A DNA stretch of 64,000 nucleotides from Pseudogymnoascus verrucosus. Its lineage: Eukaryota. The translations under genes were made by a program, and so were the position numbers. How positions within the stretch are numbered: position 1 is the stretch's first letter; each line of letters begins with the position of its first letter. The notes beneath the pieces are model-generated. The model saw nothing but the letters and a program-made list of their open reading frames with translations. It had not been told where the DNA came from and did not search any database. The stretch lies in NCBI GenBank assembly GCA_001662655.1, contig KV460207.1, one strand, 5' to 3'. Positions 52,740 through 57,193 of this stretch are shown here, one piece after another.

Positions 52740-53458
52740 ATGGGCAGTAAGTATTATCAATAATGATTAATGTGAATCTCTGAAATTAACACACAGATAG
52801 GATCTAAGAACCACAATAAGAACCCCCGTCACGTCCACCATGAGCCATCCCAACCCTCGTATGGCGGTGTCCAAAAGTCGAGATTGGAAGTCAAAATGCG
52901 AAGGAAAGACGGAGACAAGTATGTTGACGATATTAGGGCCGAAGTAAGTGTATAATTTTATATTCATACGACATATCTGACAAGGATATATAGGTCATAA
53001 AGGAGAGAAGGGCAGCAGAAGAAGCAGCAGCAGAGGGGCCATCTCCGGGCCAAAGACTTCGACGCGGGGAGCTTTTGGCTGAAAAAGAAAACTACTTGAA
53101 GCGATTCACCGCCGCCAATGCAAGGATCGCCGCGGCAAAGAAAGCCGTCGACACCGCAGCTGCACAGTATGAAGAAGCCAAGGAGGAGAAGCGAGTGATG
53201 GAGGCGGCATACCGCGATATTTTGACTGAGCTTGGTCGTATCCCAGCTGATCTCTCCAGCTCCAGAGGAGGGACGTTGAGGAGTGGGGTCGATATCGTGA
53301 CGAAGGAGGAGGGGGAGAATGTTGCGAAGCAGGAAGTAGAACATGTTGTGAAGCAGGAAGGGGAATATGTTGTGAATCAGGAAAAAGAAAATGTTGTGAA
53401 GCAGGAGGGGGAGAATGTCATGAAGCAGGAAGAAGGAGGAGTCGTCGAAGAGGAATAG
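52740..53458 (+). CDS. Orphan 204-aa coiled-coil protein with C-terminal 8-aa repeats (exons 52740-52746, 52801-52943, 52994-53458)
   Basis: Two GTAAGT...TAG introns give a single open frame MGRSKNHNKNPR...DDIRAE|VIKERR...; helical A/E/K-rich middle region. Confidence 0.7.
53290..53455 (+). repeat. 24-bp coding minisatellite (~6 units, consensus ENVVKQEG)
   Basis: DIVTKEEG ENVAKQEV EHVVKQEG EYVVNQEK ENVVKQEG ENVMKQEE. Confidence 0.85.
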
Positions 53459-53941
53459 GAGAGGGGAGGGGGGGATATGTTTTGATGGATGTCGAGAGTA
53501 ACGAACCACATATCCTGCTTATATTTTGCTGTATATAATAATCGGGGCATAACTGTTTAGCTAATCCCAATAATAATTGCGCGACAAGCAACGACATTTC
53601 ACTCAACGATATAATCAGCATAGTATTTGTGACGTCGAAAAGTTTGGAGAGTGACTGTACAACAACAGCTGAGTTGGTATAATAACTGTAGCCTCGCACT
53701 CCCCTTCGACCCACTTAATCCCACCCATATCACGTGCATCTAATTCTCGCGTCTCCACCTACAAAAATCTCCAAACGTCGAAGCTCTCTCCCACTCCACA
53801 AACCTCACAATGGCAGATTCCCGGTTCTGATGTCCAACATGGAGATACCAAACCCATTCCACACGTAAGAATTGGACTTAAATACTGAAGCGCATGTCTC
53901 CCTTTCTCCCCTGTCCTTTCCTTGCCTCCCCGAACACTGTC

Positions 53942-54140
53942 TCCTGCCTCGCTCAGCTCCGCCTTCCTCTGGCAGAGTTTCGAGCTGGATGCGCGCCGGT
54001 CCGCAAGGACCGCCGTGTACGAGACCAGAACGAACCCAGCGACCTTTGAGTGCGTACCCTCTCGATCCATGTGGAGGATTGCGCAATTTGTTGTCTGGGA
54101 CAGACAAGACGATAACGAACTGTTTGGAGACGAAGCAGGA
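53942..54140 (+). ncRNA. Putative structured ncRNA (H/ACA-like or unclassified)
   Basis: Several hairpins that need G-U pairs on the + strand, a GCAA tetraloop, a pocket-containing hairpin followed by ACA, and complementary ends. No convincing ORF. Confidence 0.5.
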
Positions 54141-54299
54141 TTTCATTCTATAGTTGTAGGCAATAATTGGAAGAAGTTCATAGAAAACCAAATGGATATA
54201 TACCCCCCCAAGACTCCTATCTATATCATCGCTCAATGCAGACCCAATGCAATGCAATGTTAATAATACGCCGCCAATCGCACAATTCAATCCCACTCT

Positions 54300-56117
54300 T
54301 TACTCCGCAAACCCAATGCTCTCCCTCGCATCATCCACTACCCTCCCATATTCAAGCAGCAGCCGAAAGAACCACACCTCGAGATCCGCATTCCTCAGCG
54401 CCCTCCCCGCCCACTCCGTACTCCTCATCGCAAGCGCCTTCCCCTCTTCTGTCGCAGCTCCCCCTCCCGCACCCCCATCCGTAATCCACCTCATCGCCTC
54501 AACCCAGTCCCTCCCATGCAAGCTCAGCGGCACATAATGCACCCACTCGCGCAGCCACTCCGCGTGCCACTCGCGCGAGATTCCCATCTTCAGCACCGCA
54601 CTCCCACTCTGCAGGAAGCTGTAGAAGCGCCCGCTGAAAGCGTTGCCGTCCATGTCGAGCAGGTAACGGGAGCGCCATGCATCGTTCGGGTCTACCTTGG
54701 GGAGCACGTGGAAGGCCTCGCGCTGCGCGGTGCAGTCGCCTGTATCACATTGCCCGACTTCAGTGAACTTGATGTCGAAGAGGTCTTTGTGGTCCTGCAC
54801 AGCAGTGCTTTTTTCAGTCCACTCCGTGGCGCTGTCTTCCTTGGCGAGGATCGGGGTTTGGTCGTTGGAATTTGCTTTAAGGACGAAACGCTGACGATGA
54901 TGGCGGCGCCACGCTCCGAAGCGCGAGTAGCCGCCGGTAGTCCCGCCGCGCCAGTACAGAGTCTCTTGTTTCTCGGCCCATGGTATGTCTTTCGTGGCAT
55001 TATAGGGCACCATGTCGTACCAGTACCAGGGGGAAGGGTATATGATGTCTTGGAAGCTGGATATCTTGCTCTGCGAGAATATAGGGATGAGATCCTGAGC
55101 AACGTTGAAGCTGTTTGCGCTCGCAAATAAGCCGTAGTTTTTGCTGAACGATGGGGAATTGCAGATATCGCTATACGCCGTCTGGTTTGTTATGAAACCT
55201 AGCGGAGTGGTAATCGACTTGTTGTTGACGTCTGGCACTTCTCCCACTTCCAGGAGAGAGCGCGATGGCGAATCAGGTGGACACGAAAGTTTCGAGTGCG
55301 CCCAGGTCGACTGGTGAGAAAAGTAGTTAAACCGTGACGTCGGCACTTCCTTGATCCCCTTAACTAAATCCGCATGCGAACTCCACGCGTTCCGTGGCTT
55401 CTCATTCAGCATCGCCGTCTCTATGCTCTCCTTACCATTCGCCACAAGTCTTTGTAGGTCATCATGTGGCACCGCCACGCGTGGCTCATCGTGCACATTG
55501 AATGCCAAATCCATATCTGGCAGGTACTGTGTGAATTCTTTCGTCATCCCCTTTAGTGCATCTCTCACCCAACTCTGGCCCCCCTCTGTATGCGTGACAT
55601 TCCCCTGCCGAATCTGCAGCGCAATGAGCATGTTATCGTGGCCAAGAGCTTCGGTGACGCGCGCGCGCAGGACAGCGGGTGGGAGTCCCCGGAATGGGAG
55701 GAGGAGGTCGTGAATGGTGTCGAACTCATCGACGAGGACGACCTTGCGCGCTTTGGCGAAAGCGTACCACTTGTCAAAGTTTGGGGGCGGGGAGAGGCCA
55801 TAGCGGCGCTTGTATTCGGCGATGACTTGGGAGAGACTGGTTGATTGCCGGGCCTTGAGGGCTTCGAAGTCGGCGTTGGCGTTGGCTATTAGAGTTCGTA
55901 TGGGGTGGTCGCCAGAGCCAGTTGTAGGCGTTGGTGGCGTTGGAGTGGCTAACTTGTATTCCGTATCTCGCGAGGAGCTTTGGGGAGAAAATATCTTTGG
56001 GATAGAAGCTGGGGCTTTGCCATCTCGCAAGAAAACCAATGTCGTAGTAAGGAGAACAGAGGCAAGTATAAGACACACAATCCTTGTCGGGGTTCTTCGT
56101 CGCATCTTGCGAGACAT
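54300..56117 (-). CDS. GT90/CAP10-domain glycosyltransferase (Cxt1-like xylosyltransferase family), type II membrane protein
   Basis: N-terminal signal anchor; HPI..L, EY.RRYG..PPPNFDKW, LPDMDLAFN.HDEPRV, PIFSQSK, LYWRG.TTGG, RYLLDMDGNAFSGRF, WVHYVPL. Confidence 0.92.
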   Translation of the reverse strand: MSRKMRRRTPTRIVCLILASVLLTTTLVFLRDGKAPASIPKIFSPQSSSRDTEYKLATPTPPTPTTGSGDHPIRTLIANANADFEALKARQSTSLSQVIAEYKRRYGLSPPPNFDKWYAFAKARKVVLVDEFDTIHDLLLPFRGLPPAVLRARVTEALGHDNMLIALQIRQGNVTHTEGGQSWVRDALKGMTKEFTQYLPDMDLAFNVHDEPRVAVPHDDLQRLVANGKESIETAMLNEKPRNAWSSHADLVKGIKEVPTSRFNYFSHQSTWAHSKLSCPPDSPSRSLLEVGEVPDVNNKSITTPLGFITNQTAYSDICNSPSFSKNYGLFASANSFNVAQDLIPIFSQSKISSFQDIIYPSPWYWYDMVPYNATKDIPWAEKQETLYWRGGTTGGYSRFGAWRRHHRQRFVLKANSNDQTPILAKEDSATEWTEKSTAVQDHKDLFDIKFTEVGQCDTGDCTAQREAFHVLPKVDPNDAWRSRYLLDMDGNAFSGRFYSFLQSGSAVLKMGISREWHAEWLREWVHYVPLSLHGRDWVEAMRWITDGGAGGGAATEEGKALAMRSTEWAGRALRNADLEVWFFRLLLEYGRVVDDARESIGFAE

Positions 56118-56602: not shown

Positions 56603-57193
56603 CTAGTAGAAGAAACCGATGATCTTGCCGGCAACGTGCTTGCGGCGGGCCTCCTCGTGGTCCATGATGCCAGCGGAGGTGGTCAGGACGATGTAACCGA
56701 ACTGACGGGCGGGCAGCAGCTTGACAACCCACTTCTCGAGGTCACCGAGACCGACGTTGTAGCGGGGGGAGATGACACCGGTCTTGTTGAGACGTCCGTT
56801 CAACTGGATGACGATCTTGCCGGAGCGGTGGTCATCGACCTCCTCGAACTCTCCGATGTAGCCTAGGAGATATGTCAGTATATCGCGAAAATTTAAAAGT
56901 CGCATAGTTAATGGAAATAACATGAAACGTGTAAGATCCTCGCATGATAATATATCGGCAACTTAAAGGACTATGGTCGTAGGAATCGGAACCGTCATCT
57001 AGTTATCATGCCGAATGGCAAGGAAAGAAAGCAAGAAAACGAAAAGAGAAGTAAACGTACCGTGCTTCTGCATGACAGCAAGGAACTTGACGATGACCTT
57101 GGAGGAAGGTCTGATGAGGACCTGGCGCTTTCCGGCCTTCTCGGCGTTGTTGATGGCGTTAAGCGCATCGTTGAGGACGGAAGTCTTGACCAT
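56603..57193 (-). CDS. RPS22: 40S ribosomal protein S22/uS8; coding intron ~56863-57060 and 5'-UTR intron 57242-57471
   Basis: [61 protein letters not shown]...GKIIGFFY. Confidence 0.97.
56878..57016 (-). ncRNA. snR44: Intronic H/ACA snoRNA, snR44 orthologue
   Basis: Hairpin 1 pocket GAUAACU/UUUAA matches 18S UUAAA-Psi-C-AGUUAUC, with H box AUAUUA 14 nt downstream. Hairpin 2 pocket UCUUACA/UUUAAA matches 25S UUUAAA-Psi-A-UGUAAGA, with an AUA box 14 nt downstream. Same host gene as yeast snR44. Confidence 0.85.

Follow-up and report, generated by a model that had tools for sequence, protein, structure and literature searches.

Within a 64,000-nucleotide (nt) stretch of Pseudogymnoascus verrucosus DNA (contig KV460207.1), referred to here in its full length as the window, positions 53937-54105 (+) very probably hold the orthologue of budding-yeast snR36, a box H/ACA small nucleolar RNA (snoRNA) that, judging from its sequence, guides modification of the 18S ribosomal RNA (rRNA) uridine equivalent to yeast U1187. 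The family is known, its target is known and its arrangement is ordinary. For annotation, an apparently empty intergenic segment of 169 nt becomes the predicted guide for a conserved pseudouridine, one that adjoins the hypermodified m1acp3Ψ in the part of 18S near the P site. As to method, the case illustrates that a by-eye H/ACA fold, though correct, can miss the family given a common H-box variant and a short target duplex. The host gene and the sequence-frozen, pocket-less 5′ domain are of modest interest for snoRNA specialists and should come as no surprise to the field.

Identity of the RNA

We scanned the whole window against Rfam 15 with cmscan and obtained two matches at the gathering level, snR36 (RF01242) and snR44 (RF01262), the latter described further below. 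The RF01242 match at 53937-54105 scores 56.0 bits against a gathering threshold of 43 and spans model positions 1-180 of 180, with an E-value of 1.1e-07 in the 64-kb window and 1.3e-09 in a local search. It lies on the + strand only and is the top-scoring of the overlapping clan matches. In the cmscan alignment UGCCUCGCUC, GAGCUGGAU, CUUUGAGU, AAUU and ACA all fall on upper-case consensus positions of the model. The elements of the RNA, with the evidence for each, are listed here from 5′ to 3′; MFE denotes the minimum free energy fold.

53937-54105, + strand: snR36-family box H/ACA snoRNA, predicted mature RNA of 169 nt (Rfam RF01242; similarity to homologous loci over 53935-54096)
53939-53943, + strand: 5′ arm of the basal stem of the 5′ domain (GUCUC), pairing with 54021-54025 (alignment columns 7-10/141-144)
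53945-53989, + strand: hairpin A, with base helix UGCCUCGCUC / GAGCUGGA and a variable, covarying upper helix (cmscan alignment, covariation)
53990-54019, + strand: hairpin B, with a GCAA tetraloop at 54003-54006, variable in length and sequence among relatives (MFE fold, covariation)
54021-54025, + strand: 3′ arm of the basal stem of the 5′ domain (GAGAC) (MFE fold, covariation)
54027-54032, + strand: H box variant AGAACG, consensus ANANNA (aligned to the Rfam hinge consensus AuAauA)
54035-54043, + strand: 5′ arm of the basal stem of the 3′ hairpin, pairing with 54090-54099
54044-54051, + strand: 5′ strand of the pocket (CUUUGAGU), of which UUGAGU at 54046-54051 pairs with 18S ACUCAA (18S pocket scan; identical to the Rfam consensus; part of the search pattern)
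54052-54084, + strand: upper stem and loop of the 3′ hairpin (columns 183-188/250-255)
54085-54089, + strand: 3′ strand of the pocket (AAUUU), of which AAUU at 54085-54088 pairs with the 18S AAUU that immediately precedes the target U (AATT in 54/55 distinct rows, outside the search pattern)
54090-54099, + strand: 3′ arm of the basal stem of the 3′ hairpin (MFE fold, covariation)
54100-54102, + strand: ACA box, 3 nt before the predicted 3′ end (aligned to the model ACA)
54131-54140, + strand: 3′ arm of a closing stem proposed earlier, outside the conserved RNA and not kept in relatives (fold, homologue comparison)

As modelled from the MFE fold, the Rfam alignment and covariation over 55 distinct rows, the RNA has the hairpin-hinge-hairpin-tail architecture of the H/ACA class. 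A preliminary description of this DNA, made from the letters alone, had placed the RNA in that class, with ACA about 14 nt after the upper stem, and the RF01242 match bears this out (we measure 15 nt, within the class range of 14-16 nt to the box). It had also called the RNA atypical, an orphan or a new fungal non-coding RNA, while granting that a hit to a known Rfam family would remove the novelty, and the full-length match above gathering does so. The notion of a structured RNA unrelated to known families came solely from the failure of that description to spot an H box and a target. We consider it refuted, with next to no probability left, since the full-length match lies above threshold, the best pocket match is the known target site of the family, and 19/20 of the homologues tested also score as snR36.

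Protein-coding function is likewise unsupported, as 5/5 open reading frames (ORFs) across the snoRNA region are without a Pfam family at E 0.1 or better. A SNORD34 match at 54138-54189 (-) reached 19.5 bits against a gathering threshold of 38 (E 0.75) and was rejected as chance. The main text of a paper on the fungal snoRNAome does not name snR36 (0 occurrences), while its supplements may list the family in Pezizomycotina (PMC5824354).

Homologous loci and covariation

Homologues were collected by scanning metagenome contigs with a three-motif pattern of conserved elements, for which about 0.4 chance matches are expected (a hand estimate that assumes ~10^12 bases). The pattern matched 73 loci (L052-L124), 54 of them distinct. 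Of the 20 loci tested, all but L053 attain the snR36 gathering score (19 loci, 45.8-188.7 bits). Alignment of 74 rows with MAFFT and RNAalifold gave 33 consensus pairs, 22 of which show compensatory changes. Across the 55 distinct rows, 94.4% of 1797 cells are paired, compared to 29.9-40.4% in controls with the 3′ partners slid by 1-3 columns, and cells changed on both sides number 216 compared to 22-66 in the slid controls; none of 500 shuffles attains any of the observed values of these pairing measures. G-U pairs are frequent (for example in 27, 22, 21 and 18 rows at four pairs), which assigns the RNA to the + strand. The fold supported by covariation is the Rfam fold, in which a basal stem, GUCUC/GAGAC, encloses two hairpins and is followed by a hinge and a 3′ hairpin with an internal loop.

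Support is spread over the individual helices. The basal stem of the 5′ domain is 99.1% paired, with 2/4 pairs changed on both sides; the basal 3 pairs of hairpin B (columns 76-78/136-138) all covary, as does the upper helix of hairpin A (columns 23-27/61-65; for example GC in 34 rows and AU in 19, or UA in 34 and CG in 16). In the 3′ hairpin, 9/9 pairs of the basal stem (columns 167-175/260-269) are changed on both sides, and the upper stem is 95.8% paired, with 4/6 pairs so changed. In its base helix, hairpin A agrees at every letter with the Rfam consensus; this helix belonged to the search pattern, and its invariance in the metagenome set is by construction. Positions outside the pattern that are nevertheless invariant or nearly so are the AATT of the 3′ pocket strand, T48, G91, C93 and G151.

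When the window was compared with the homologous loci by blastn, only 53935-54096 aligned; the flanks of the snoRNA gave no alignment, and similarity ends at the borders of the RNA. The conserved unit is therefore the snoRNA alone. Two of the loci that match the three-motif pattern, L053 and L094, have GTTTTA and GATT where the H box and the ACA should align. Both were probably matched by chance or else represent a very divergent relative, and both were included in the alignment counts. Data set X23 contains the snoRNA region (53935-54062) in two versions, a 128-nt contig with 0 differences and another contig with 7. A further contig there replaces or skips 54107-54165. These contigs suggest that X23 includes a second related genome or haplotype.

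Folding energy and the limits of the structured unit

The structure exceeds chance and the + strand is favoured. Over the 199 nt from 53942 to 54140, the MFE fold reaches -83.4 kcal/mol, compared to -63.7 ± 4.1 for dinucleotide shuffles (z -4.79; 0/200 as good). The 169 nt bounded by Rfam fold at -66.3 on the + strand against a shuffle mean of -55.1 (z -2.63; 2/200 as good), while on the - strand z is -1.35 and 15/200 shuffles are as good. The preference for the + strand in the preliminary description thus agrees with both the folding scores and the frequent G-U pairs in the homologue alignment. Each element named in it lies where it was placed, including TCCTGCCTCG (53942-53951), CGAAGCAGGA (54131-54140), the GCAA loop (54003-54006), GTAAGA (53865-53870), ACA (54100-54102), GATAAC (54111-54116), CAG (54136-54138) and the ATG of a tiny ORF at 53810.

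The outer boundary drawn there needs revision. A closing stem and four hairpins had been proposed, and the MFE fold of 53942-54140 contains them all, but the closing stem and the fourth hairpin (54101-54126) fall outside the conserved unit, the 3′ arm of the stem lying 26 nt past the predicted 3′ end. In the window, the first 20 nt of the RNA can form a strong duplex with the 55 nt that follow it (-18.9 compared to -11.8 shuffled; 0/30 shuffles as good). Over the 54 loci the same duplex averages -11.2 compared to -11.5 shuffled, and only 2/54, the window and L113, beat all shuffles. Because the duplex is strong only in the window while the mean of the 54 loci stays at the shuffled level, the closing stem is not conserved. 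The proposed extensions of the GCAA hairpin, CTGG/CCAG and TTCG/CGAA, also have to be given up, as they compete with the pairing supported by covariation and would sequester the H box.

H box, guide pocket and predicted 18S target

The hinge reads CCAGAACGAAC, within which AGAACG is aligned to AuAauA of the model. This sequence agrees with the H box consensus at 5/6 positions and carries a G at position 6, where the 55 distinct rows have A in 37, G in 15, T in 2 and C in 1, each G being followed by an A. In fungal H boxes the first and third A are described as highly conserved and the sixth position as more variable (PMC5824354). The variant is thus normal for the snR36 family. The earlier statement that the RNA lacks a canonical H box is literally true, yet an aligned H box is present, in a form shared with 15/55 distinct rows. 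At the other end, the homologues carry ACA or the variants ATA, AAA or AGA at the aligned box.

To find the target, 18S sequences were taken from eukaryotic contaminant contigs in the GTDB collection by means of a 16-nt motif, and 6/6 loci tested carry SSU_rRNA_eukarya. Three of them, L026, L039 and L013, hold full-length 18S at 1785-1793 bits, L026 being of fungal type (1790 bits). We scanned 18S, 5.8S, internal transcribed spacer 2 (ITS2) and the first 387 nt of the large-subunit (LSU) rRNA of L026 by a rule that takes each uridine as a candidate, with the 5′ strand of the pocket pairing 3′ of U+1 and the 3′ strand pairing 5′ of U. The best of the 470 uridines in the L026 18S is U1183, with 4+6 Watson-Crick pairs, and the runner-up scores 7.5; the same site is also best in L039 and L013. 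Its context is CUUAAUU[U]GACUCAACACG, where the target U lies directly 5′ of GACUCAACACG. Since GACΨCAACACG is numbered as yeast 18S nucleotides 1188-1198 (PMC3045603), the target U is yeast U1187, a position guided in yeast by snR36, with U1181 guided by snR85 (PMC2862742). By complementarity, then, the snR36 homologue is predicted to guide pseudouridylation of the U1187 equivalent, and the earlier remark that the RNA has no convincing rRNA target gives way to a 3′ pocket whose best match among 470 uridines is this site. Plain complementarity of the whole RNA to rRNA stands at chance, with 6 eight-mers compared to a shuffle mean of 7.1.

Several points weigh against this assignment. The H box deviates from ANANNA at position 6, and the three motifs of the search pattern are invariant in the metagenome set by construction, a circularity that takes them out of the evidence for conservation. 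The target sequences come from contaminant contigs of other eukaryotes rather than from the rRNA of P. verrucosus itself, and LSU coverage extended to the first 387 nt. The 10-bp duplex is modest, given that shuffled guide strands score >=10 somewhere in 18S in 51/1000 trials. Pairing 5′ of the target is limited to 4 pairs, followed by a U-U mismatch, and the yeast-type AATTA, which would add a fifth pair, is found in 18/55 distinct relatives. The complementarity is convincing only because it lands on the known site of the family among 470 candidates.

A decayed or unexpressed snR36 pseudogene, with the functional gene elsewhere in the genome, would account for the non-canonical H box and for an Rfam score of 56 that sits in the lower half of the 19 scored homologues (45.8-188.7 bits). 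We judge it very improbable, as every box, every helix and both pocket strands are intact, and the identical G6 variant of the H box recurs in 15/55 distinct rows. In a contig from a related organism there are enough shared exact 31-mers for a conserved block over the RNA, whereas the flanks are about 9% different. One sequence per organism is also described as typical of fungal snoRNA families (PMC5824354).

If the snR36 orthologue works as established H/ACA ribonucleoproteins do, the RNA would assemble with Cbf5, the pseudouridine synthase, and with Nop10, Nhp2 and Gar1. The pocket is complementary to the 18S strand through UUGAGU (54046-54051) with ACUCAA and AAUU (54085-54088) with AAUU; between the two duplexes a U-G dinucleotide stays unpaired, at the pocket top and 15 nt ahead of ACA. 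The unpaired U, yeast U1187, would become pseudouridine.

The 5′ domain

The 5′ domain forms a three-way junction without a canonical pocket. When its strands were scanned in 12 offset combinations, no top match fell near the equivalent of 18S U105/U106, and the best 18S scores, 7-9, were at other positions. Hairpin B as a guide pocket gave a best score of 7.5, and this candidate was rejected; because its base covaries, hairpin B is a helix and not a guide.

The stretch of LSU around position 163 is variable between fungi. The best candidate for a second target of the 5′ domain, at 11.5, falls in that stretch, near LSU position 163 of L026 (~2795). It uses the conserved strands of hairpin A (8 + 3.5) with non-adjacent offsets and G-U pairs, and we discount it as chance after 24 scans.

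The 5′ domain would serve as a second protein-binding hairpin rather than as a guide. We also considered whether it is more than a structural second hairpin, having a second non-guide role or an unassigned target, and whether there is separately a dedicated spliced non-coding host; this combined proposal seems unlikely. A second non-guide role would fit the observation that the base helix of hairpin A is letter-identical to the yeast-derived consensus while all other helices covary. Should the proposal be true, possible roles include docking on the pre-18S rRNA or on a protein in assembly of the small-subunit head, or a target outside the scanned rRNA.

Comparison with known guide RNAs

The RNA shares with Saccharomyces cerevisiae snR36 (RF01242) a bifurcated 5′ domain, a hinge, a 3′ hairpin with a pocket and an ACA tail. 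The pocket strands CUUUGAGU and AAUU and the base helix of hairpin A are identical, and 18S U1187 is the predicted target in common. The two differ in the H box, which here reads AGAACG rather than ANANNA, and in hairpin B, which here is shorter and GC-rich and has a GCAA loop. The 3′ pocket strand is AAUUU, not the AAUUA of the yeast consensus, giving 4 rather than 5-6 pairs. The gene in P. verrucosus is possibly intron-borne, whereas the yeast gene is independent.

Human SNORA36 (ACA36) belongs to the same Rfam clan, CL00035, and is an H/ACA guide for the equivalent 18S site, which we take to be human Ψ1244; its 5′ hairpin also guides 18S Ψ105. Human U1248 corresponds to yeast U1191, giving an offset of 57 (PMC3045603). 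The RNA described here differs from ACA36 in that its 5′ domain lacks a canonical pocket and gave no bipartite match around the equivalent of U106, and it does not qualify as a double guide. The job at the U106 equivalent appears to belong to the snR44 homologue of the same window. The snR44 and snR36 homologues are alike in clan, class, upstream pyrimidine tract and a shared 11-mer, while their guide sequences differ.

In yeast, snR35 (18S Ψ1191) and snR85 (Ψ1181) act on the same stretch of 18S, and their duplexes overlap that of snR36 (PMC2862742; PMC3045603). Both the RNAs and their target uridines are distinct from snR36. Neither snR35 nor snR85 turned up in the whole-window Rfam scan, which was not a search aimed at them.

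Origin of the RNA: intron-borne or independent gene

The RNA could have its own transcription unit or could come out of an intron, with donor 53865 and acceptor 54138, in a short non-coding host transcript. The candidate signals for splicing are as follows, all three being read from the letters and the third from them alone.

53865-53870, + strand: candidate 5′ splice site GTAAGA of a possible host intron
53897-53931, + strand: pyrimidine-rich tract between the candidate donor and the snoRNA (a similar tract precedes the snR44 homologue in its proven intron)
54111-54138, + strand: candidate branch site GATAAC (54111-54116) and acceptor CAG (54136-54138)

In the intronic account, which we hold to be about half probable, the snoRNA would lie in a single intron, 53865-54138, of a short spliced non-coding host, and would be released exonucleolytically from the debranched lariat. 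GTAAGA is the sole donor-like hexamer between 53700 and the RNA, and the donor, the 35-nt pyrimidine tract, the snoRNA, GATAAC and CAG stand in the right order, the donor lying 72 nt before the RNA and the acceptor 33 nt after it. The same layout is found around the intronic snR44 homologue of the window, in the uS8 gene (GTACGT, a 44-nt pyrimidine-rich spacer, the snoRNA, ACTGAC, TAG). Fungal splice signals follow the consensus GTRNGT at the donor and CTRAY at the branch, against which all three signals here are sub-optimal. A GTRNGT donor within 150 nt upstream of the homologues occurs in 12/54 loci in sense and in 22/54 in antisense, so there is no enrichment in the sense direction. The figure from Neurospora applies to C/D snoRNAs rather than to the H/ACA class.

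The related contig bears on the flanking region. Among the differences listed, none falls within 53859-53874, while 53848, 53850, 53851, 53858, 53875 and 53880 differ; the donor hexamer is thus without a listed change. Four of the listed differences lie in the pyrimidine tract (53906, 53912, 53916 and 53919), and all exchange pyrimidine for pyrimidine. The ATG of the tiny ORF (53810-53812) is changed at 3/3 bases, and the flanking ORFs have no Pfam match, both of which agree with a non-coding host. On the other hand, the joint 53864/54139 predicted by the intron is absent from all contigs of the 4 sequencing runs compared, and two short contigs span the proposed intron borders. The only joints seen, 54106→54166 and 54233→54300, belong to the second, diverged sequence in X23.

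Budding-yeast snR36 is an independent RNA polymerase II gene. A corresponding arrangement in P. verrucosus, in which the promoter would lie close to the TATA-like GGTATAATAAC (~53677) and the leader would be trimmed off, is a distinct possibility, though somewhat short of an even one. TATA-like elements are found at 53525-53535 and 53677-53687, and the yeast-like homologue L067 (188.7 bits) has a TATA-rich stretch ~45 nt upstream with no donor motif. The contigs of the 4 runs, in which no evidence of splicing was found, are also in keeping with an independent gene. Such a gene would have a leader of 250 nt, which is long, and would leave the pyrimidine tract and the ordered splice-like signals to coincidence.

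Splice-like motifs stand close to the RNA in some of the homologous loci. In 22/54 distinct loci the 9 nt preceding the snR36 start include a TAG, and in 26/54 a YAG, compared to 16% of 754 control windows. Three loci (L075, L082 and L086) have GTAAGT 2 nt past the 3′ end of the RNA. In some fungi snR36 RNA may directly follow a 3′ splice site, or may even be an exon. The snR36 locus of the window has no such upstream TAG.

The snR44 homologue and neighbouring features

The second gathering-level match, the snR44 homologue, lies at 56878-57016 (-), 2.8 kb from the snR36 homologue, and scores 36.6 bits against a gathering threshold of 33. It carries AUA rather than ACA as its box. It sits inside a 198-nt intron, 56863-57060 (-), of the uS8/RPS22 gene, with the signals GTACGT, ACTGAC and TAG in that order; exon 1 (57193-57061) and exon 2 (from 56862), both on the - strand, match Pfam Ribosomal_S8 profile positions 3-38 and 41-126. 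The yeast RPS22B intron harbours snR44 (PMC4937481), and the host is thus the same in P. verrucosus as in budding yeast.

The exact 11-mer CTTTCCTTGCC has only two copies in the 64 kb, at 53916-53926 (+) and 57017-57027 (-). The first stops 10 nt short of the snR36 homologue, and the second directly adjoins the first base of the snR44 RNA. Allowing 1 mismatch gives 6 matches compared to 1.5 expected, and 2/100 shuffles reach 6. Two pyrimidine tracts could share such a repeat by chance; otherwise it would be an upstream feature common to two RNAs of the same clan.

On the same strand as the snR36 homologue, an ORF of 127 amino acids (53075-53458, +) ends ~480 nt upstream of it. This ORF has no Pfam family, and its lysine/glutamate-rich tail contains the imperfect repeats VAKQEVEH / VVKQEGEY / VVNQEKEN / VVKQEGEN. 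A further ORF, at 54300-56117 (-), belongs to glycosyltransferase family 90 (Pfam E 2e-14), and its nearest Atlas clusters, in agreement with a fungal genome, are from fungi (Ascomycota, Basidiomycota).

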